In this document: piece by piece, positions 1-54,755 of the stretch
How the letters are laid out: each line of letters starts with the position of its first letter
How positions within the stretch are numbered: position 1 is the stretch's first letter
From: a bacterium
Lineage (GTDB): Bacteria; Patescibacteriota; Patescibacteriia; SG8-24
Reading direction: 5' to 3'
Assembly (NCBI GenBank): GCA_023246225.1
Contig: JAHFIV010000002.1
Span: 1 to 62,015 of the forward strand
DNA length: 62,015 nt
The notes under the pieces: model-generated
What the model was told of the DNA's origin: nothing
The model's database searches: none
Seen by the model: the letters and a program-made list of their open reading frames with translations, nothing else
Translations under genes and position numbers: made by a program

Positions 1-1323
1 CTGGATCTCCTCGGGGGTCGCGCCGTGGTCCTTCCGGAGGTTGAGCATCACGATGGTCAGCGCGATGTCGGCCGCGTTGCCTTCGTCGCCGCCGGTCGCC
101 GTGGTGTCACCCGCGGCTTCCGTCGTCGCGTCCGCCTCGGTCTCGGTGGGCTCGACGTTCGAGTCCACCGCATCCTCGACGACCTCGCTCTCCGTCGAGC
201 TGCTGTGCTTCGCCGCCGCGATCGCGAGCGCCTTCGTCTTCGCCTCGCAGAGCGCTGCGAAGTAGAACGCGCCGTTCTTCGCGAAGAGGAGTGGCAACTT
301 CCCGCTCTTCTTCGCCGGGTCGACGCGGCTGGACTTCTTGTCGAACGCCGCCGTGATCGCCTCCGCGGTGGAGTCGCCGTTCAGGACGACGCGCTCGCCC
401 TGGAGGGTGAGCATCTGGTAGATGTCGATCTTCCTCTCGGCGGGATCCGTGAGATCACGCTCCGAGGTGGGCACCGTGACGCCCGCCTTCGCGGCGACCG
501 ACCTGACGACCACCTCCGTCTGTCCGATGGGGATCTTCTTCCCCGTCGGCTTTCGGAGGGATGCGATGATCGCCTGCTCGTCCGCGGGGATCGGGTAGGC
601 GAGGAGGAAGTTCCTCCTGTCCAGTCGCTCCAACATGCACCGCGTCGGGCGGTCCACCTTGGGCGCCTCCACCCCACGTGCGAGGAACACCACCCAGCCG
701 TTGTGGCGGGCCATGAGCTTCGGCGAGGAACCGTCCTTGCCGGGCGTCATGGTGAAGGTGAGCGTCGCCATCGGGGTGAACGCCGGGGGTTCGTGGTACT
801 CCGCCTCCGTGAGCAGCTCCGGCGCCGCGGGGTACAGCTCGTAGTACGAGCCGTTCTTGTCGCGGAGGAGGTACGCCTCGAGGACGTACATCACGCCGTC
901 GACCGGGTGGAACCAGTCGTCGCCGACGTAGCCCCGGATGGAGCCTTTCGCGGTGACGATCGGCGCGAAGGTCGTCTTCGCACCACCCTTCTCCTCGACG
1001 GTGGCGAAGCGGAGGTTCATCGTGGTCGGCGCGCCGTTGGGGCGGCCGTCGTTCGTGTTCCTCGGGTTGTTCGTCTTCGCCGCCTTCCTCGCCTCGCGAC
1101 GCTTCGCGAAGCAGGGGACGCACCAGCGGTCGAGCGCCGGCTTGTCGGGGTCGATCTTCGGGACCTGCGGGAGCTCCGTGATGGGATCCTTGCACGTCGC
1201 GCAGATCAGGCCGAGGGCGCTGACGTTCACGAGCGTGGTCGCTGCGCACGGCACGGGGTTCGGGTTCGGCGTCTCCGCCTTGCCCTCGTCCGCGGTCGTG
1301 TTCGTGTCGGTGTCGTTGGACAT
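1..1323 (-). CDS. hypothetical protein, strongly G+C-rich, CxxC-x23-CxxC motif near N-terminus; C-terminus runs off the window start
   Basis: Frame missing from the ORF track because it has no stop in the window. ATG at 1323-1321 follows AAGGAGAGG. I read it codon by codon without stops: MSNDTDTNTTADEGKAETPNPNPVPCAATTLVNVSALGLICATCKDP...RWCVPCFAKRREARK. Third positions are almost all G/C. The other long ORFs here translate as Arg/Gly-rich noise. Confidence 0.6.
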   Translation of the reverse strand, partial: MSNDTDTNTTADEGKAETPNPNPVPCAATTLVNVSALGLICATCKDPITELPQVPKIDPDKPALDRWCVPCFAKRREARKAAKTNNPRNTNDGRPNGAPTTMNLRFATVEEKGGAKTTFAPIVTAKGSIRGYVGDDWFHPVDGVMYVLEAYLLRDKNGSYYELYPAAPELLTEAEYHEPPAFTPMATLTFTMTPGKDGSSPKLMARHNGWVVFLARGVEAPKVDRPTRCMLERLDRRNFLLAYPIPADEQAIIASLRKPTGKKIPIGQTEVVVRSVAAKAGVTVPTSERDLTDPAERKIDIYQMLTLQGERVVLNGDSTAEAITAAFDKKSSRVDPAKKSGKLPLLFAKNGAFYFAALCEAKTKALAIAAAKHSSSTESEVVEDAVDSNVEPTETEADATTEAAGDTTATGGDEGNAADIALTIVMLNLRKDHGATPEEIQ

Positions 1324-1431
1324 GATGTCCTCTCCTTCGTTTAGGGCAGAAAAGCCCTGCAGTTGCGGCCCATATGGGCAGTTGACTCACTCGGGACCAT
1401 CCCAAAGCGAGTCGCTCGTTGTCGTGCAGAA

Positions 1432-1460
1432 TGTATACCATAATTACCTTTATTTGTCAA
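1432..1460 (-). promoter_or_regulatory. sigma70-like promoter for the G+C-rich gene
   Basis: Minus strand reads TTGACA-N17-TATACA, about 100 nt upstream of the ATG at 1323. Confidence 0.4.
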
Positions 1461-1481
1461 GTGTTTCTGACATCAATTTTA

Positions 1482-1510
1482 TTGACCCTTCTCCTCAAAA
1501 ATGGTACTTT
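1482..1510 (+). promoter_or_regulatory. sigma70-like promoter for the 1544 CDS
   Basis: TTGACC-N17-TACTTT; divergent from the 1432-1460 promoter. Confidence 0.35.
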
Positions 1511-1543
1511 GCGGACGTTATATGCGATGTATATCTGTTATCT

Positions 1544-3259
1544 ATGTCAAAGGAATCATCTGAATCCCGACGCGAATTTCATCTATCAGATCAGACCGGC
1601 CCCCTCCGAGAACTTATCGCAACACTCGCAGAGGACTATCTCGCCATAGATCAGACTCTTAATCCCGGAGAAATTCTGCAGGATCCGAACTACCTCGATC
1701 TCTCACCTGAAGACCGCAAAACGGTACTCGAGTGGGCGGTAGAAAAAGGCTATTTCAAGAGCGACGTTCTCTCTGGAACAGTCGCTCCGAAAATTGCAGA
1801 GACAGAGACGGCCGAAACACCGACAACGCTCGACGACCTCAAGGCAGTGATCACCTCGAACGTGGAGATGGCTCGGGAGATCGCACTAGAACCAGATCTC
1901 TCTGCGATCTGGACCGATCCCGAATATCTCGCGCTCGATGACGCATCGCGAGCGATGCTGCACGCATGGATGACAGAAAATGACTACGGTGCGCCACCCG
2001 ATGCGCCGGTCTTGGAAGAATCCGCATCACCAGAATCATCACCACCACCGGAATCCGAACGAAAAACTCCTGCACGAAAATTCGTGTGTTATGGTTTTAA
2101 AAAAGATGCGGGAGGACATTGGCATGTCTCTGAAACCTACGAAAAAAGAATCGGGCAAACAAATGACACAGAACATGTCGAGATAAAAACCGCGATCGAC
2201 ATTCCAGACGATCTCGCGAAAGAACTGGAACGAGGCGATTCTTCGGTACTCGGAGATGCATACTTAAATACCTGCGAAACGATTCGCAACGAACTCGATG
2301 CATCAGGAGATGAGGGGCTGAAATTATTTTTTGACGGTTGGGATGCGAAGAGAAAAGGGAAGGTTGATCCGAAGAGTATCAAACCTCGATGGAAATATTT
2401 TCTTCCTGACGTAGACGAGCGACAATCGGATGATGGAGAAGTACCAGAGCACATTTTGCAACTGGTGATCGATCATCCCAAAGACTATTTTACACAAAAG
2501 GAATACAAAGAATGGTACGGAAAATCGTTACAAGAAAAACGCGAGGCGATTATTAACAAGGTGGTCTTGAAGACACCCGATGAGAAACCTGATGCGGCAG
2601 ATGATGCGCCGGTAAGTGCGCCAGAAATACCTGTCGCAGCTTCTGAAAAACCGCCTGTCGTCGAGGAGCAACGAACCACCGAACCGACTGCGGAAGAATT
2701 AGAAAAAAAATTCGGAAAAACGTATCTTGCACTGCGTGCTCGTGCAGAACAAACCGAAGATCTTGCTGCATTTCAAAAAACGCTGAGTATGCAGATCGAC
2801 AATGAAGCGTTTAAAGAACAGCTCGTAAAAAAATTCGGCAAAGACGCGCCACGCGACGCAGCACGGCTGCTCTTGGAGATTGAACGAGGGATGATCGGGG
2901 AGCGATCAGAAACGCTGCTGGACGGTATCGAGCGCACACAAAATGAACGCGACTTTTTTGATGCCCACCCGTCGCTCGATAGACGAAACTTCACCTTGCT
3001 TAACGACGGTACGCTGATCGCACGTCTCGATCCAGTGCATCCTGATGCAACGATACATCGTTCGCTCACTGCACTCGTGAACGATGCGCTCGGGGGATTC
3101 CACACAGACGCACAGGAACAAAATTTACGACAAAAAATCGCCGTAGCGCTTGAAAAAGAATTCGCAGGAAACCAACAGATGCTGATTCGTAATCTCGAAG
3201 CGCTCCTGGAAAAGATCCGCGTGATGCGCAAATACGAAAACATGATGAAATTACCGTGA
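1544..3259 (+). CDS. large acidic hypothetical protein with internal repeats
   Basis: The 938..3259 ORF is trimmed to the first ATG after the A+T-rich intergenic region (MSKESSESRREF...). The upstream 200 codons overlap the G+C-rich minus gene and look spurious. No recognisable domain. Confidence 0.55.
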   Translation: MSKESSESRREFHLSDQTGPLRELIATLAEDYLAIDQTLNPGEILQDPNYLDLSPEDRKTVLEWAVEKGYFKSDVLSGTVAPKIAETETAETPTTLDDLKAVITSNVEMAREIALEPDLSAIWTDPEYLALDDASRAMLHAWMTENDYGAPPDAPVLEESASPESSPPPESERKTPARKFVCYGFKKDAGGHWHVSETYEKRIGQTNDTEHVEIKTAIDIPDDLAKELERGDSSVLGDAYLNTCETIRNELDASGDEGLKLFFDGWDAKRKGKVDPKSIKPRWKYFLPDVDERQSDDGEVPEHILQLVIDHPKDYFTQKEYKEWYGKSLQEKREAIINKVVLKTPDEKPDAADDAPVSAPEIPVAASEKPPVVEEQRTTEPTAEELEKKFGKTYLALRARAEQTEDLAAFQKTLSMQIDNEAFKEQLVKKFGKDAPRDAARLLLEIERGMIGERSETLLDGIERTQNERDFFDAHPSLDRRNFTLLNDGTLIARLDPVHPDATIHRSLTALVNDALGGFHTDAQEQNLRQKIAVALEKEFAGNQQMLIRNLEALLEKIRVMRKYENMMKLP

Positions 3260-10176: not shown

Positions 10177-10340
10177 GTCATCCTGAACTTGATTCAGGAC
10201 CCAGAAACGTAAAAAAAGCCGAACGGAAATCGTTTGGCCTTTTTAATTTTTCTGGATTCCGGGTCACGGCCCGGAATGACAAAAAAAAGGGGGGTCGGAA
10301 TGACAGAAAGGAGGGGTCGGAATGACAGAAAAAATGACAG
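10177..10340. repeat. REPIN/BIME-like palindromic cassette A (hairpin modules around a terminator core, then GGAATGAC half-site array)
   Basis: GTCATCCTGAA..TTCAGGAC, CCAGAAACG, core AAAAAAAGCCGAACGgaaatCGTTTGGCCTTTTT, TTCTGGATTCCGGGTCACGGCCCGGAATGAC, then GGAATGAC at 10297 and 10319. Confidence 0.85.
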
Positions 10341-11273: not shown

Positions 11274-11576
11274 GTCATTCCGGGCCGTGGCACGTCGGTC
11301 GCGACCGACGTGCCGTGACCCGGAATCCAGAATCGTAAAGCCAAACGTAATCACGTTTGGCTTTTTTATTTTTTCTGAATTCCGGCCCCTCTTCTGTCAT
11401 TCCAGCCTCTCTATCTTGTCATCCCAGCCTCCTCTTTTTGTCATTCCGGGCCGTGACCCGGAATCCAGAACCGTCAAGCCAAACGATTTTCGTTCGGTCT
11501 TTTTTTTACGTTCTGGATTCCGCCCCGGATCCCGGTCCGGGGTCGGAATGACAATATAAAGAGGGCCCGGAATGAC
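11274..11576. repeat. REPIN/BIME-like cassette B (two tandem units; the first carries the nested 26-bp palindrome)
   Basis: Unit 1 is 11274-11400 with core GCCAAACGtaatcaCGTTTGGC. Half-sites GTCATTCC/GTCATCCC sit at 11396, 11418 and 11440 (22-nt steps). Unit 2 is 11440-11552 with core GCCAAACGattttCGTTCGGTC. Confidence 0.9.
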
Positions 11577-14103: not shown

Positions 14104-14207
14104 GTCATTCCGGGCCGTGACCCGGAATCCAGAATCGTAAAGCCAAACGTATATCACGTTTGGTCTTTTTTTTACGTTCTGGGTCCCGGATCGCGGTCCG
14201 GGATGAC
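14104..14207. repeat. REPIN/BIME-like cassette C
   Basis: GTCATTCCGGGCCGTGACCCGGAATCCAGAATCGTAAAGCCAAACGtatatcaCGTTTGGTCTTTTTTTTACGTTCTGGGTCCCGGATCGCGGTCCGGGATGAC. Confidence 0.9.
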
Positions 14208-17694: not shown

Positions 17695-17829
17695 GTCATT
17701 CCGGGCTCCTCTTTTTGTCATTCCGGGCTTGACCCGGAATCCAGAAACGTAAAAAAATCCGAACGAAAATCGTTCGGTCTTTTTGTTGTGTGGATTCCGC
17801 CCCGGATCCCGGTCCGGGGTCGGAATGAC
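17695..17829. repeat. REPIN/BIME-like cassette D
   Basis: Half-site at 17695, full module at 17717, core TCCGAACGaaaatCGTTCGGTC, right arm GGATTCCGCCCCGGATCCCGGTCCGGGGTCGGAATGAC. Confidence 0.9.
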
Positions 17830-31637: not shown

Positions 31638-33425
31638 ATGCCGAAACGAATAATCTTGATGTGGATGGGCCTACTCGGCGTCATCTTGTTGGTTTTTGGG
31701 TTCCTGGCTTTCACCCAACAAGCTCGCCAAAACGTAACCGTTCCCGCGAGCGAATTCATCTCCAAGGTGGAAAACGGCGATATCACGCGAGTGACCATCG
31801 CCGGCAACCAGATCCACGGAGAGTCCAAGGGAAGCATCGGCTACAACTCCTACGTCTCCGAAAAAGAAGAACTGGTCCGTGCGCTCCACGACAAACGCGT
31901 ACCGTACGAGGAGAAGGAGCCATCTGACAACAGCTCGTTGGTGGGGTTGATCGTCAAGATTGGGCTCGCGGTGTTCATCGCGTTCCTTCTGCTAAAAATG
32001 ATCAAGGGCGCAGGGGCGAACAACACCATGCTCAAACAACAGACGTCGCACAAAGCGAAACTGTTCGATCAGCTAGAAAAAAAGACGTTCGCAGATGTCG
32101 CGGGCGTGGACGAAGCGGTCGAGGAGTGTCGCGATTTCGTGACATCACTCAAGGATCCGACAAAGTTCGCGAAGCTCGGTGGACGTAGCCCTAAGGGAAT
32201 ACTTCTCGTCGGCCCGCCAGGAAACGGAAAAACATTGCTCGCTCGCGCGATTGCGGGCGAAGCCGGTGTACCGTTCTTCGCAGGAAGCGCATCAGCGTTC
32301 GTCGAGATGTTCGTCGGTGTCGGCGCTTCGCGTGTACGCGACCTGTTCGACCACGCAAAAAAACACATGCCATGCATCGTGTTCATCGATGAGATCGACG
32401 CGGTCGGCAAGACGCGCAGTGGCCACACTGGTCCCGGTGCGCACGAGGAACGCGAGCAAACGCTCAACCAATTGCTCGTCGAGATGGACGGATTCGAACC
32501 GAACAAGGGGATCCTTGTGATCGCCGCCACCAACCGACCAGAGACGCTCGACAAAGCTCTCACACGCTCGGGCCGACTCGACCGCACTGTGGTCGTGCCG
32601 CCACCGGACGTACGTGGCCGCGAGGCGATCCTGCGAGTCCATGCGCGAGACAAGAAGATGGCTCCAAACGTGGACTACACCGCGGTCGCTCTTGGGACCG
32701 CTGGCCTCGTCGGTGCAGATCTCGAAATGCTGCTCAACGAAGCGGCGATCGATGCTGCAAAGCGCGGCCAGAACGAAATTTCCACAGAGGACATCGAACG
32801 CGCCAAAGAGAAGGTGTTCATGGGTCCGGAGCGAAAGAGCGCCGTGCTCTCCGCGAAGACCAAGGAGATCATCGCCTGGCACGAGGCCGGACACGCGATC
32901 GTCGGGTGGTTCACTCACGAAGCGCACACGCCACACCGAGTCACCATCATCCCGCGCGGCATGGCGCTCGGTCTCACTTGGTTCCTCCCCGCCGAGGATG
33001 TGGTGCTCCGAAGTCGCAAAGAGCTGCTCGCAGACATCAAGGTCGCATTCGGCGGTCGCGCTGCAGAGAAACTTCTCTTGCAGGACGATTACACCACAGG
33101 TGCGAGCAATGATCTGGAGCGCGCAAGCGAAATCGCTGAGCGAATGGTGAAGAACTTCGGAATGGGCGATGGTCTGGGCTTCGGCACCTTCGCAAAGAAG
33201 GAGCAGGGCTACGGCTTCGATCCCTCGAAGGGCTTCAGCGAAGAGACTGCTGTGCGCATCGATGCAGAGCAAAAACGAATCCTCGAGGACTGCGAGAGCC
33301 GCGTCCTCACCATGCTGACCGACAAGCTCGACCTTCTCAAACAACTCGCAAACACACTTCTCGCCGAAGAGACGATCGGTGTCGATCGTCTCACCGCCAT
33401 CCTCGGCCCCAGGCCGGTGGCATAA
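31638..33425 (+). CDS. ftsH: ATP-dependent zinc metalloprotease FtsH
   Basis: Two TM helices, [38 protein letters not shown]. Confidence 0.97.
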
Positions 33426-33431
33426 CACCAC

Positions 33432-33466
33432 CACGACCCCCGTTTTCTACGGGGGTCGTTTTATTT
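33432..33466 (+). terminator. ftsH intrinsic terminator
   Basis: ACGACCCCC-loop-GGGGGTCGT followed by TTTATTTT. Confidence 0.75.
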
Positions 33467-33467
33467 T

Positions 33468-33660
33468 CTCATCCTGACCCCGGATCAAGTCCGGGGGATT
33501 CAGGACCCAGTCATTCTTTGTCATTCCGGGCCGTGACCCGGAATCTAGAACGTAAAAAAGAGCCAAACGGAAATCACGTTTGGCTCTTAAGGTTCTGGAT
33601 TCCGGCTCGGAGGCCGGAATGACAATGAATGAGTGGGTTCCGGGTCACGGCCCGGAATGA
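33468..33660. repeat. REPIN/BIME-like cassette F
   Basis: TCATCCTGACCCCGGATCAAGTCCGGGGGATTCAGGAC, GTCATTCCGGGCCGTGACCCGGAATCTAGAA, core GCCAAACGgaaatcaCGTTTGGCTC, and two right-arm modules ending GGAATGAC. Confidence 0.9.
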
Positions 33661-33965
33661 CAAAGGGGGACAAAAGAGCTTAATGTAGCTATTTTGGCTA
33701 ATCTTAGCCAAAATTAAGATATTATGCATACGAACTAAAAATGTACACAAAAAATAAAAAATAATAATAAAACGTGAATATCTACAGGACGGCCAGCCAT
33801 CACAGAGAGAACACCGCGCGCAAAAAAGATGCTCTCTAGAGGCGGAAAAAGAACGATCGATCCTCGTGTGCACCTTGCGCCTCAACGCCGTATTATGTGT
33901 CGCCTAAGATATATTGTACGACACCATTAAGAGGGCTTTTTGACCCCTTCCCCGCCGAATAACCA

Positions 33966-33994
33966 TTGACCAGAAGTAACAGTTTTGCTAGGGT
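33966..33994 (+). promoter_or_regulatory. promoter of the first M41-only gene
   Basis: TTGACC-N17-TAGGGT. Confidence 0.45.
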
Positions 33995-34029
33995 ATCAAG
34001 TTGGTTCTTTTCATGTCTGGAGGTGCATC

Positions 34030-34752
34030 ATGCAATCGATCAAGATAAAAAAGCATTCGTGGTGGACCAGTGTAACGTTGATCGTCATCAGCTTATGGGA
34101 GAAGACACGGCGTTTGATCCCCTTTTTGCGGGAACCGCATGTCCGCGTCTACCTCCCACGACAGTACGATAACGATGGACGAACTCGCACCGCAGTGCAC
34201 GAGGCAGGACATGCCGTGGTTGCGTGGAGTGCAAAAAGTGTACGACATATCACGCGAATCATAATCACTGCCGACAGAGAAGAAGAGGACCTCTTCCTGA
34301 ACGCGGGTCGCACCAAGTACATTAAAAAAGGAACGCCGTGGGGTGAAACGCCACACCGTCTTTGGGAAGATGTGGCGATCGGTCTCGCGGGACTCGCTGC
34401 AGAGTCCAACGTCTACGATTTCTTCCAACCGTCGGGCGCGGAGGAAGATCTCGGTGATGCCTTGTTGGCCGCGAAGCTGATCGTACTCAAAGAACGCAGA
34501 AAGGGGAAAATATTTTCTCCACCGTGGAAAAAGGAAACGCCCATGCGTAACGCCCTCGACCTCGCGTCGGTCTGCTACCACCCAAACGAACTCACTCCAC
34601 GTCTCTCAGAAATTCTGAACTTGTCCTACTATCGTGCGTGCGACATCGTACGTGCGGAGCGGGAACGACTGGATGCGCTCGCTGTGGCAGTGCACAAAAA
34701 AGGGGCACTCCAGAAAAAAGAGATCAAAACAATCCTTGGTAGACGTCGATAA
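34030..34752 (+). CDS. FtsH-type peptidase M41 domain protein lacking the AAA ATPase module (paralog 1)
   Basis: GGAGG SD then the ATG at 34030; one N-terminal TM helix; TAVHEAGHAVVAW, LAGLAAE, GAEEDLGDA, C-terminal helices parallel to the FtsH tail; no Walker motifs. Confidence 0.7.
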   Translation: MQSIKIKKHSWWTSVTLIVISLWEKTRRLIPFLREPHVRVYLPRQYDNDGRTRTAVHEAGHAVVAWSAKSVRHITRIIITADREEEDLFLNAGRTKYIKKGTPWGETPHRLWEDVAIGLAGLAAESNVYDFFQPSGAEEDLGDALLAAKLIVLKERRKGKIFSPPWKKETPMRNALDLASVCYHPNELTPRLSEILNLSYYRACDIVRAERERLDALAVAVHKKGALQKKEIKTILGRRR

Positions 34753-34884
34753 GACTTCGTCGTGTGGTGAACACCACACGACTTTTTTGTTTGCCTTCTC
34801 CATCCCCATCTGTAATCATAAAAAAGGTTCTTTGTAGTCATCAGGAGAGAGCATGATGAACGATGCGCGGTCGGGGAGTGCGCG

Positions 34885-35532
34885 ATGATACCTGTCACCG
34901 TAGCGATCATCCCGTGGAGTGCGGTGAAAAAATTCGCTCGTGAATTGCTGCGAAAGGGAAGTCACCTACTCCCCTTCTCCGGGCGCTCACGAATGGCGAC
35001 ACATGAAGCAGGACACGCGATCGTCGCATGGCACTCTTCGTGCGTCGTTAACATCACAAAGATCACCATCGTCCCCGACCGAACATCTGAGTATGGCGCC
35101 GCCACTTCCTATGAAGTGTTCAATCGCTTAAAACCAGAAGATCTTTGGGAACGTATCGCAATTTCTCTCGCAGGCCTCGCTGCAGAAGCGCTTGTGCGCG
35201 GTGATCTCAGCATCGGTGGGTCCTCGAGTGATCTCGATCGAGCAGGCATCATCGCGGAAAACATTGCAGATCTTCCGTACGATCTCTCGCGATGTCCGTG
35301 GACGGATGTAGAATATGCACCGCAGCGTTTCGACCTCATACCACTCGCGTACAAAAGTCTGACTTCAACGAACACAAAAATTCTGAACATCTGTCTTCAG
35401 CGTGCAGTCATGATTCTCGAAGCGCATCGTGAGCAACTGAACGCACTTACCGCTGCGATCAAGTCACAAGATACCCTCGATTCCGAAGCGGTCAGTGCGG
35501 TTCTCGGCGAGCGTCCCACGTTCACGTTGTAA
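34885..35532 (+). CDS. FtsH-type peptidase M41 domain protein lacking the AAA ATPase module (paralog 2)
   Basis: [30 protein letters not shown]; no Walker motifs. Confidence 0.7.
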   Translation: MIPVTVAIIPWSAVKKFARELLRKGSHLLPFSGRSRMATHEAGHAIVAWHSSCVVNITKITIVPDRTSEYGAATSYEVFNRLKPEDLWERIAISLAGLAAEALVRGDLSIGGSSSDLDRAGIIAENIADLPYDLSRCPWTDVEYAPQRFDLIPLAYKSLTSTNTKILNICLQRAVMILEAHREQLNALTAAIKSQDTLDSEAVSAVLGERPTFTL

Positions 35533-35563
35533 CGCGCCTCACGCCAGAATAATCCCCTTTTTT

Positions 35564-35750
35564 GTCATTCCGGGCCACCTACTTTGTCATTCCGGGCCGT
35601 GACCCGGAATCTAGTCATTTTTTGTCATTCCGGCCTCCGAGCCGGAATCCAGAAAAATACAAAGACCAAACGAGATTCGTTTGGTCTTTTTTTACGTTCT
35701 GGATTCCGGGTCACGGCCCGGAATGACAAAAGAAGAGCCGTGGAGATGAC
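35564..35750. repeat. REPIN/BIME-like cassette G
   Basis: GTCATTCC at 35564, 35586 and 35624; core GACCAAACGagattCGTTTGGTC; right arm GGATTCCGGGTCACGGCCCGGAATGAC; extra GAGATGAC. Confidence 0.9.
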
Positions 35751-35758
35751 AAGAGGTA

Positions 35759-35893
35759 TTATTTCCCTCTCGTTCTCACCACCTCAAAAACACTTCGATG
35801 TGTGTATCCCGCATACACCATGAGCACGCTCATCGTGAACGCGATAATGAGTCCGATACTTGCGAGCAACAAAATTTTTGTAGGTTCTTTCAT
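35759..35893 (-). CDS. possible 44-aa membrane peptide, ATGA-overlapped with the M23 peptidase stop
   Basis: Hand translation: MKEPTKILLLASIGLIIAFTMSVLMVYAGYTHRSVFEVVRTRGK. Below the ORF-track length cutoff. Confidence 0.35.
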   Translation of the reverse strand: MKEPTKILLLASIGLIIAFTMSVLMVYAGYTHRSVFEVVRTRGK

Positions 35894-37128
35894 AGAGTGA
35901 CTAAAAATCGCAATGGGTCGACAGGAATCCCTTTAAGTCTCGTTTCAAAATGAAGATGCGGCCCGGTTGTGAGCGGTCCCGCTCCTGGTGTACCCGGCGA
36001 TCCGCCAGAATAGCCGATCACCTCTCCCCTATCCACAAAAGTATCTTCCTTCGCAACGACACGCGACAAGTGCCCGTACACCGTCGATACATCGTTGTTG
36101 TGAATCAACATCACATAGCTATATCCCATCCCCGCATTTTTCGCGCGCGCAACAACACCTGCTGCGGCAGCGCGCACCGGTGTTCCCTGCCATGCACGAA
36201 TATCGATTCCTGGATGCTCAAACACATAGCGGAAGGGATAACCCGGATCATGGAACATCGTTGAAAGACCTCGACTCGCATCCACCGGCCACGACAGCAC
36301 CGAGTCGACGCCGCGTAATTGATCGGCGATGGTAATCTTTTCACGCAACGCGTTTTCAAGATACGTTATCTCCGAGTCTGCTTGATTCTGTTCTTGTTTG
36401 AGTTCAGCGAGTCGATAGCGATATTCCAATTCTGATGCTTTTGTTTCGGTAAGCAACGAATCTTTGAGCGTACGATTATCTTCAAGTTCGCGTTTCGCAA
36501 CCTCGAGCTGCCGCTCATTTGCTTCCATCGCAAGTCGCTTTTGATCTCGCTCTTTTTTTTCTGCATCGAGCTTTGCTTTTGTATCTCGCACCGATGCAAG
36601 TGTTTTTTGTACACCGGTTTGTAGATCGGTGATCGACTGCAAACGATCAAAAAAATCGGAAAGCGTTTTATTTTCCACTAACACTTCGAACGTACTTTTT
36701 TGGAAACGTGTCGTGTACAGTCGTCGTGCAAGCACACCGAGAAGCTCGCGCTCTTTTGCTATTTGTAATTCTTGTTCACGAACTTTTTCGTCGATCACAC
36801 CGATTTCGAGACGAAGCGCCTTGAGTTCGGTCTGCACAATCTCAATATCAAGCTGCGTTTTTGCAATGCCGTTCTCCGCAAGAATAATTTGATCCTGCAG
36901 CGTTGCGGAGGTTTCTTTTTTTTGCGCGATAAGCGCGCGATACTTTTCTTGTTTTTGCTGGAGGTCCTTGAGCGCCTGTTGTTTACTTTTTACGTTCGCA
37001 TTTAAATCAATGATCTCCTGTTTAATATCAGCAGCAAACGTCACGCAAGGAAAAATGATGAAAGAGGTCGCAAGCAACAGTGCAACGACGAGGAGCGGAG
37101 TACGCAGTGGTGAGAGGATGCTTTTCAT
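35890..37128 (-). CDS. M23 family metallopeptidase with N-terminal coiled coil (EnvC-like)
   Basis: Signal/TM helix, long coiled coil, GIDIRAWQGTPV, HLHFE. Confidence 0.9.
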   Translation of the reverse strand: MKSILSPLRTPLLVVALLLATSFIIFPCVTFAADIKQEIIDLNANVKSKQQALKDLQQKQEKYRALIAQKKETSATLQDQIILAENGIAKTQLDIEIVQTELKALRLEIGVIDEKVREQELQIAKERELLGVLARRLYTTRFQKSTFEVLVENKTLSDFFDRLQSITDLQTGVQKTLASVRDTKAKLDAEKKERDQKRLAMEANERQLEVAKRELEDNRTLKDSLLTETKASELEYRYRLAELKQEQNQADSEITYLENALREKITIADQLRGVDSVLSWPVDASRGLSTMFHDPGYPFRYVFEHPGIDIRAWQGTPVRAAAAGVVARAKNAGMGYSYVMLIHNNDVSTVYGHLSRVVAKEDTFVDRGEVIGYSGGSPGTPGAGPLTTGPHLHFETRLKGIPVDPLRFLVTL

Positions 37129-42765: not shown

Positions 42766-43176
42766 TCAATTGTCATTCCGACCACGGATCGAACCTGGAG
42801 GATCCAGACCAGCCACACATTGTTTGTCATTCCGACCCCTCTTCATTTTGTCATTCCGGCCTCCGAGCCGGAATCTAGAAAAGACCAAACGTATATCACG
42901 TTTGGTCTTTTCTGGGTTCCGGGTCACGGCCCGGAATGACATACTTAGAAGGCCGGAATGACAGTACTTATACTTTCTCCAAAAAATCAGCAATGGAACC
43001 GAGGAAACGCCTATAAATTGAGCGAATTTTTCTGACTGCCATAGTGTTTTGCCCATGGGAGTGGTATGGTGAACATACCACTCCACGTGGAATGAACGGT
43101 CCGTTAAAGCGGACCTTACTGCGAGAATACTGCACCACTCTCCCAAGAGACGCAGTATTTTCGTTTTCAGGAGCAT
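42766..43176 (-). CDS. doubtful ORF downstream of lexA whose 3-prime half reads through cassette H
   Basis: GAGGAG lies 6 nt before the ATG at 43176. About 70 unique codons, then repeat-encoded SFRAVTRNPE-type sequence. Confidence 0.25.
   Translation of the reverse strand: MLLKTKILRLLGEWCSILAVRSALTDRSFHVEWYVHHTTPMGKTLWQSEKFAQFIGVSSVPLLIFWRKYKYCHSGLLSMSFRAVTRNPEKTKRDIRLVFSRFRLGGRNDKMKRGRNDKQCVAGLDPPGSIRGRNDN
42772..42962. repeat. REPIN/BIME-like cassette H
   Basis: GTCATTCC at 42772, 42826 and 42850; core GACCAAACGtatatcaCGTTTGGTC; right arm GGGTTCCGGGTCACGGCCCGGAATGAC plus GGCCGGAATGAC. Confidence 0.9.
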
Positions 43177-46739: not shown

Positions 46740-46885
46740 GTTGTTCCGGACTCCCTTTTTTGTCATTCCGGCCTCCGAGCCGGAATCCAGAACCGTAAAG
46801 CCAAACGTATATCACGTTTGGCTTTTTTATTTTTTCTGGATTCCGGATCCTGGTCCGGAATGACAAAGAGTGGGTTGGAATAACA
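46740..46885. repeat. REPIN/BIME-like cassette I
   Basis: GTCATTCCGGCCTCCGAGCCGGAATCCAGAA, core GCCAAACGtatatcaCGTTTGGC, TTCTGGATTCCGGATCCTGGTCCGGAATGAC, extra GGAATAAC. Confidence 0.9.
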
Positions 46886-54467: not shown

Positions 54468-54755
54468 GTCATCCTGAACTTGATTCAGGACCCAGACATG
54501 TGTTCTCGTTCCGACCCTGTCCTCTGTCATTCCGGCCTTGAGCCGGAATCCAGAATCGTAAAGCCAAACGTAATCACGTTTGTTTTTTTACGTTCTGGAT
54601 TCCGGGTCACGGCCCGGAATGACAAAAAGAGGTGGCTGGAATGACAGAGAGAGGATGGAATCCAGAAAAATAAAAAAGACCGAACGGAAATCGTTCGGTC
54701 TTTTTTACGTTCTGAGTCCTGAATCCCCCGGACTAAGGTCCAGGGGTCAGGATGG
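54468..54755. repeat. REPIN/BIME-like cassette J (two units, both module types)
   Basis: GTCATCCTGAACTTGATTCAGGAC; GTCATTCCGGCCTTGAGCCGGAATCCAGAA with core GCCAAACGtaatcaCGTTTG; a second core GACCGAACGgaaatCGTTCGGTC flanked by GGAATCCAGAA and CTGAGTCCTGAATCCCCCGGACTAAGGTCCAGGGGTCAGGATG. Confidence 0.9.

Follow-up and report, generated by a model that had tools for sequence, protein, structure and literature searches.

Can the protease half of FtsH exist as a gene of its own, and what would such a protein do? FtsH is the textbook protease in which a fused unfoldase provides both specificity and safety, and it is the only essential membrane protease of bacteria. The question is raised by two short genes, here called A and B, which lie downstream of a canonical ftsH in a patescibacterial genome (lineage SG8-24; assembly GCA_023246225.1, contig JAHFIV010000002.1). 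Positions 1 to 62,015 of this contig were analysed as one stretch of DNA, called the window hereafter. We found that A and B are very probably real, selected genes encoding FtsH-type (M41) peptidase domains without an AAA module, and that they belong to a distinct family. The M41 domain itself is known; the motor-less branch of the FtsH protease family is new. The genes and signals of the locus are as follows.

31638..33425, + strand: ftsH, canonical, 595 amino acids (aa), with FtsH_ext, AAA, AAA_lid_3 and Peptidase_M41 domains and its own catalytic motifs intact; TIGR01241 score 668 bits
33433..33469, + strand: terminator-like hairpin (33433-33459) and T-run directly 3' of ftsH
34030..34752, + strand: gene A, M41-only, 240 aa; predicted local distance difference test (pLDDT) score 87.0
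Sites of gene A: Shine-Dalgarno (SD) sequence GGAGG 34019-34023; HEAGH 34198-34212; Glu125 34402-34404; Asp140 34447-34449
34759..34792, + strand: terminator-like hairpin (34759-34782) and T-run 3' of gene A
34885..35532, + strand: gene B, M41-only, 215 aa, ATG start; pLDDT 89.4; ratio of nonsynonymous to synonymous substitution rates (dN/dS) 0.23
Sites of gene B: SD GGGGAG 34873-34878; HEAGH 35002-35016; Glu101 35185-35187; Asp116 35230-35232
35661-35689: bidirectional terminator-like hairpin inside the second repeat cluster, 3' of gene B
35890..37128, - strand: M23 peptidase gene, convergent, the conserved downstream border of a slot that holds one to three M41-only genes in related genomes

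The longest open reading frame (ORF) of gene A starts with TTG at 33985 (33985-34752, 255 aa). The ATG at 34030 is the more likely start judging from the sequence, because GGAGG (34019-34023) precedes it.

Through profile searches, we found a single Pfam domain in each protein, PF01434, with an E-value of 8.5e-12 (45.8 bits) in A and 5.8e-18 (65.9 bits) in B, the curated cut-off being 29.9 bits. The model of full-length FtsH, TIGR01241 (cut-off 600 bits), gave 39 and 59 bits and aligned only at model positions 410-598. No match to PF00004 or PF17862 was obtained with A or B in the profile search, nor any match to PF06480 (FtsH_ext), and the N-terminus holds one short helix instead of two transmembrane (TM) helices. 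These results bear out the initial annotation, made from the DNA letters without database searches, in which A and B were said to align only to the FtsH protease domain and to lack Walker A/B and the second region of homology (SRH), and in which a hidden Markov model search giving PF01434 present and PF00004 absent was proposed as the check. The two proteins thus show neither the fusion of AAA+ to M41 nor the double TM region with FtsH_ext that define FtsH proper. They also differ from FtsHi pseudo-proteases, which have lost HExxH and kept AAA, since in A and B HExxH is intact and AAA is absent. By profile score, catalytic motif set and fold, both are M41 peptidase domains.

The HEAGH motif, the Glu of LAGLAAE and the Asp of (E/S)DL were present in A and B and invariant in 10 aligned relatives, and the residues H, E, G, H, G, E and D were invariant across 122 and 86 aligned family members (scored in alignments A1, A2, A4 and A6). 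The Asp of (E/S)DL is taken by us to be the third zinc ligand, as in published FtsH structures. The metal ligands are therefore retained in both proteins, as had been expected, and their loss, which would have spoken against functional peptidases, is excluded by the alignments.

AlphaFold2 models of B (pLDDT 89.4; predicted template modelling score 0.82) and A (87.0; 0.78) kept the whole protease-domain fold including the C-terminal helices. In the Foldseek search with B, 50 out of 50 among the PDB matches listed were protease domains of FtsH, AFG3L2, YME1 or FtsHi (best E 4e-8), with a template modelling score, normalised to the target, of 0.69 for the isolated domain 2di4. By sequence, the family profile matched Thermotoga maritima FtsH (2ce7) at 1e-24. 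The model of A is composed of a helix at residues 11-29, a low-confidence flexible linker of about 20 residues and the protease domain. A TM helix had been assigned to this protein; the helix itself was recovered in the model, but its hydrophobic part covers only 13-14 residues (Kyte-Doolittle 0.99 over 19 residues), and we consider it at best a weak putative anchor.

A and B share 32% identity with each other and 24-28% with the protease domain of the cognate FtsH (B 28%; A gave no significant BLASTP match). A HMMER profile search of 1.84 billion representatives revealed 106 proteins at E <1e-30 and 1,924 at E <1e-10. Every one of the best 150 representatives was 178-284 aa long, and A and B were the top profile matches. 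The family comprises at least 150 clusters at 50% identity. It can be defined by a length of about 180-280 aa, HExGH at about 30-60 residues from the N-terminus, the absence of an AAA module, a Trp located 7 residues before L-[AG]-G-x-A-A-E, and a Pro-Trp after the Asp helix; A and B show all of these features. HExxH was kept in 151 of 152 members (median length 228 aa), and 83 of the 152 contained a strongly hydrophobic N-terminal 18-mer. The family-conserved positions, in B numbering, are W49, W88, P138-W139, a Tyr aligned with position 171, and G208-x-R210; W88 is invariant, while W49, P138 and W139 are conserved at 87-91%.

In a neighbour-joining tree, the 22 FtsH protease domains, including the cognate one, formed one clade without any of the 154 M41-only proteins. 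A and B stand outside this clade, so neither was recently derived from the ftsH next to it. They had been called paralogs of ftsH, which is right in so far as they are M41 relatives; considering the 24-28% identity and the separate clade, they are not recent paralogs of the adjacent gene. By sequence comparison, A and B are thus shown to be free-standing, AAA-less M41 domains of an old, distinct and uncharacterised family that appears never to have been fused to AAA+ in this lineage. Nothing on AAA-less or stand-alone M41 proteins came up in the literature searches, and databases give only automatic names, in agreement with the earlier statement that no system of this kind has been described.

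Apparent fusions in some metagenome loci, with ORFs of 400-556 aa, turned out to be over-extended calls around proteins of about 240-260 aa. A scan of genome contigs with the pattern [VT]HEAGHA[VI], which is also found in ordinary FtsH, gave no close relative among the matches listed, which were mostly FtsH of unrelated phyla. In L192 (813-1463), a 216-aa ORF without a Pfam match lies directly 3' of P0110, an M41-only gene in the sister clade of the ftsH-linked group described below.

Short ORFs containing only PF01434 and resembling C-terminal pieces of FtsH exist elsewhere (e.g. P0005-P0007), and A and B might likewise be the remains of a disrupted second ftsH, or an artefact of sequencing or assembly. 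DNA identical to the window was present in four groundwater metagenome runs (X1-X4); over 33636-35555 a Logan contig of run X1 shows neither a difference nor a gap, and the assembly of run X3 agrees over both genes, so that separate sequencing runs give contigs identical to the window. No AAA remnant was found nearby: tblastn with FtsH residues 1-400 against 33426-35900 gave nothing at E <1. Each gene has its own SD site, start and terminator-like hairpin. Between the window and a related strain (L005), gene B showed dN/dS of 0.23 at a synonymous divergence (dS) of 0.24, and by this ratio it is under purifying selection; the values for ftsH, ddl, alr and the gene in the ftsQ position were 0.10-0.13. 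Together with the position of A and B outside the FtsH clade and the same architecture in at least six related contigs, these results effectively refute the fragment or artefact reading, to which we assign next to no probability. The earlier judgement that the genes are not pseudogene fragments holds.

The survey of related genomes for ftsH accompanied by M41-only genes, which had been suggested as a check, found this arrangement in those six or more contigs. The 11 ftsH-linked proteins, which come from uncultivated groundwater bacteria, form one clade in the neighbour-joining tree. Its B-type branch comprises B of the window, P0001, P0002 and L003-Z; the A-type branches are A of the window with L003-X, L003-Y, P0015 with L005-A, and P0011. 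The number of M41-only genes in the slot from ftsH to the M23 peptidase gene or gltX is one in L140-L142, where FtsH is 67% identical to that of the window (L140, 8001-8708), two in the window and L005 (FtsH 92% identical), and three, in tandem, in L003 (2-2059). In L001, a protein of this clade is encoded 4 kb from an ftsH whose product is only 45% identical to that of the window. One more linked case, L143, is an unrelated family member among cellular genes (TsaD, SLT, PilB), with ftsH at a distance of about 4 kb.

Comparison with L005 revealed an exchange of gene A. The DNA is 88-96% identical on both sides of the gene, but the alignment of window 34075-34905 with L005 7070-7870 breaks down near codon 15 of A, is lost altogether once the HEAGH codons are reached, and resumes only near codon 8 of B. 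The two A proteins share 41% aa identity, and dS is 1.37 against 0.24-0.47 for the neighbouring genes; both alleles keep all family-conserved residues. Since gene A is unalignable between flanks of 88-96% identity, the two strains carry different ancient paralogs in one slot, and the pattern in the sequence points to recombination among tandem copies rather than to fast divergence by point mutation.

The distant members live in other surroundings. Seven were looked up (P0012, P0013, P0014, P0017, P0019, P0141 and P0162), and all seven lie in virus-like contexts, namely long arrays of small co-directional ORFs without family assignment, on contigs that reach 218 kb and 469 kb. The recognisable genes of these arrays encode a DNA methyltransferase, a NinI-like phosphatase, 5'-nucleotidases, DHFR, PTH2, a SNF2 helicase, DNA ligase, Thg1, NAD synthase, HSP20 and an ADP-ribosyl glycohydrolase. 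The neighbours at another 15 metagenome loci were mostly ORFans, with HNH endonucleases, a methyltransferase, a RuvC-like resolvase and GTP cyclohydrolase I; the members in those loci were accompanied neither by an AAA gene nor by any partner gene that recurred, and no ftsH lay near the member in the seven virus-like contexts. The term virus-like is an inference from gene architecture, because no capsid or terminase gene was seen in the flanks read of these contigs.

The neighbours of M41-only genes had few PHROGs matches. PHROGs contains no short-M41 family, only phrog_30773, which models full-length FtsH; the cultured phages of INPHARED include no close family member; and PADLOC-DB v2 gave no match for A, B or five relatives. 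In BFVD we found a 214-aa "Peptidase M41 domain-containing protein" of an uncultured Caudovirales phage. The IMG/VR scan returned mostly full-length AAA+M41 proteins: those of L089-L137 (e.g. L101 4444-6657 and L134 4495-6732) are FtsH-like, 476-745 aa long, with Walker A, on contigs of up to about 460 kb, and several of them have N-terminal regions unlike those of FtsH. Two short IMG/VR ORFs, in L108 (274 aa) and L138 (210 aa), were considered as members and rejected, since they are without the family motifs and are more distant AAA-less M41-like proteins.

What, then, might A and B do? Our preferred reading joins the selected AAA-less M41 family to an activity as ATP-independent, membrane-proximal peptidases; taken as a whole we put its chances at about even, and the specific mechanism set out here is tentative and somewhat doubtful. 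A and B would each act as a predicted ATP-independent zinc endopeptidase. The short N-terminal helix and the flexible linker would keep the protein on the cytoplasmic side of the membrane or close to it. With no unfoldase covalently attached, the enzyme would be able to cut only segments already unfolded or exposed, for instance peptides or the tails and loops of membrane proteins, or else a small set of specific targets. An A-type and a B-type protein would co-assemble through FtsH-like contacts of the protease ring, in the manner of type A and type B FtsH isoforms; this is suggested because the anciently diverged A and B types coexist in two diverged genomes. They may also contact FtsH. The isolated protease domain of Escherichia coli FtsH is well folded alone (bioRxiv 10.64898/2026.05.06.723347), which supports stand-alone folding of A and B.

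Several observations weigh against parts of this proposal. The soluble protease-domain constructs of E. coli FtsH were mainly monomeric in the same study (bioRxiv 10.64898/2026.05.06.723347), so ring formation by A and B is not to be assumed. Only a single M41-only copy is present in L140 and L001, and an A/B heteromer is therefore not obligatory. With a length of 13-14 residues, the N-terminal hydrophobic stretch of A and B may not span the membrane. The neighbour-joining tree carries no bootstrap support values. Linkage to ftsH was seen only in one lineage and one other contig, and may partly reflect inherited synteny instead of functional coupling. In the metatranscriptomes of the same groundwater study (X5-X7) the organism had no coverage, and only 30-nt pieces of the conserved AAA motif from other taxa were recovered.

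The proximity to ftsH would fit a different role, in which M41-only subunits are built into the protease ring of the FtsH encoded next to them, or are stacked on it. The resulting hexamers would have fewer motors, and the enzyme would be altered, capped or inhibited; the phage-borne members would then disable or retarget the FtsH of the host. The proximity persists across genomes whose FtsH proteins are 45-92% identical and is seen again in the second, unrelated member (L143), nothing of the protease-domain fold, C-terminal helices included, has been lost, and heteromeric rings mixing active and inactive FtsH-type subunits are known, e.g. the Ycf2-FtsHi structures among the fold matches. Phage lambda CIII, moreover, is a protein that targets FtsH. 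Yet A and B have terminators of their own and are probably not co-transcribed with ftsH, they share only 24-28% identity with the cognate protease domain and carry family-specific motifs, and ftsH is not nearby in any of the seven virus-like contexts; we regard this explanation as unlikely. The same virus-like contexts speak for a conflict gene of viral origin, that is, a phage protease for host takeover or anti-defence directed at specific host targets, of which the bacterial copies were domesticated for defence, as a decoy or for exclusion. All seven distant members occur in virus-like ORFan arrays on contigs of up to 469 kb, the 15 further loci bring mostly ORFans with HNH endonucleases, a methyltransferase and a RuvC-like resolvase, and BFVD holds the 214-aa Caudovirales protein. 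The divergence of gene A between strains (dS 1.37 and 41% aa identity, with dS of 0.24-0.47 in the flanks) and the copy number of 1 to 3 would also fit a gene in conflict. However, PADLOC gave no match; the locus in the window lies amid housekeeping genes without an integrase or phage gene; A and B agree with the host in GC content and codon usage; the slot is kept across deep divergence; and no cultured phage has a close member, while the viral nature of the arrays is itself inferred, no capsid or terminase hallmark having appeared in the flanks read. A viral conflict gene is thus in our view an unlikely explanation.

A third idea takes A and B as catalytically silent scaffolds resembling the plastid FtsHi pseudo-proteases. 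Pseudo-protease M41 domains are indeed known in the FtsHi chains of the Ycf2-FtsHi complex, but all zinc ligands and the catalytic Glu are invariant throughout the family, which makes this idea very improbable. Co-assembly with FtsH and phage-host conflict are compatible with the peptidase proposal and not mutually exclusive. Considering them together, we might speculate about a new class of motor-less FtsH-type rings or subunits that join or antagonise the essential FtsH of the host, with which large phages would take control of membrane proteostasis and which groundwater bacteria would keep, in a tandem array beside ftsH with rapid turnover, as a counter-measure or regulator; as a specific scenario this is a distinctly long shot. 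If it were true, M41-only proteins would represent an unrecognised protease versus anti-protease axis of phage-host conflict.

With FtsH (M41, TIGR01241) the A and B proteins share the protease fold, the HExxH helix, the Glu of G-G-R-A-A-E (L-A-G-L-A-A-E in A and B), the Asp of (S/N)DL and the C-terminal helical bundle. Unlike FtsH, they have no periplasmic or double-TM N-terminus and no AAA+ or lid, are about 215-240 aa long instead of about 600 aa, carry the family W and PW motifs, have lost the "PRG" strand motif, and fall in a separate clade. Proteases working without an unfoldase have precedents: HtpX (M48) is an ATP-independent membrane zinc protease that works alongside FtsH, and YlbL of Bacillus subtilis is a motor-less Lon-domain protein, a precedent for a protease half without an AAA+ partner. 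The action proposed for A and B, membrane-tethered and without an unfoldase, would be analogous to that of HtpX and YlbL, to which they are unrelated in sequence and fold. The plastid FtsHi proteins have kept the AAA module and lost the zinc site, and with it presumably their activity. A and B are the reverse, the AAA module being gone and the zinc site kept; they resemble FtsHi and Ycf2-FtsHi in having divergent M41 domains, which appear among the structural matches, and FtsHi occurs in heteromeric rings. FtsHi proteins are presumably proteolytically inactive (PMC6460958, PMC8197885).

M41 entries from uncultured phages (UniProt A0A6J5RJ76, 214 aa; I4AZJ7, 230 aa) are, like A and B, short and AAA-less with an M41-like fold; they share about 15% identity with B and bear automatic names only. 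The nearest published item that the literature searches gave is gp107 of the jumbo Pseudomonas phage MIJ3, which is described as "FtsH-like", with a function that is not known (PMC6892783). Such jumbo-phage proteins (MIJ3 gp107 and those of IMG/VR L089-L137) are virus-borne M41 proteins, as the distant members of the family of A and B may be, and the IMG/VR ORFs differ from A and B by their Walker A and their length of 476-745 aa. The "FtsH ternary systems" (eLife 2020) are double-AAA FtsH-like ATPases and not part of the M41-only family.

The DNA 3' of ftsH contains, in order, a hairpin, a palindromic repeat cluster, an AT-rich stretch, gene A, a hairpin, gene B, a second repeat cluster and the M23 gene. 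Because a terminator-like hairpin lies 3' of each, ftsH, gene A and gene B probably do not form one operon, as far as can be judged from the sequence. A and B are host-like in GC content and codon usage. For ftsH itself we found a GC of 0.58 and a third-position GC (GC3) of 0.71, compared with GC3 of about 0.53 in neighbouring genes and of 0.46-0.58 in nine other housekeeping genes of the window; expression-linked codon bias or foreign origin are possible explanations.

The repeats resemble repetitive extragenic palindromic (REP) sequences and bacterial interspersed mosaic elements (BIME), and are positioned as follows.

33505..33665, no strand: REP/BIME-like cluster 1, palindromic units GTCATTCCGG..CCGGAAT around a CCAAACG..CGTTTGG hairpin
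35556..35736, no strand: REP/BIME-like cluster 2, inverted relative to cluster 1 (I1, 73 nt, 93%; I2, 53 nt, 92%)
10256-10280, 11440-11464, 14104-14128, 17717-17740 and 33520-33623: repeat units
35586-35727, 42850-42874, 46762-46864 and 54526-54623: repeat units

The palindromic unit GTCATTCCGG-N-CCGGAAT has 14 copies in the window, often as inverted pairs around the hairpin, and the CCAAACG..CGTTTGG hairpin with a T-run has 6. In the groundwater metagenomes the repeat was covered hundreds to thousands of times more deeply than the DNA at its flanks, and the element is therefore common to many genomes. A repeat cassette had been noted after ftsH; it is present, but it is generic and REP/BIME-like, with its 14 copies in the window, and not specific to this locus. 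Excision of the cassette between the two clusters was considered from joints in Logan contigs and rejected, as the anchors were only 20-30 nt long and the repeat has a thousand-fold depth.

The window as a whole is an ordinary segment of bacterial chromosome with housekeeping genes. These encode the alpha and beta subunits of F-type ATP synthase, an AddA-like helicase-nuclease, MreB, PBP2, SerRS, Alr, Ddl, an ORF in the FtsQ position, FtsH, the M23 peptidase, GltX, WecG, ClpB, Fmt and RpoA. The first 1 kb of the window has a GC of 0.675, compared with about 0.52 elsewhere, and Pfam recognised nothing in two large ORFs, 25-1344 (439 aa) and 938-3259 (773 aa). The window was also scanned for Rfam families and tRNAs, without a match.

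The proteins are small (about 220 aa) with confidently predicted folds, which makes activity, oligomeric state and binding to FtsH testable in E. coli. The motor-less M41 family, which appears to be abundant in uncultivated large phages and in one lineage of groundwater bacteria, raises the question of how an uncaged FtsH protease finds its substrates without harming the cell. Being ftsH-adjacent, variable in copy number and allele-swapping in these bacteria, it could reveal a new regulation or subversion of FtsH.

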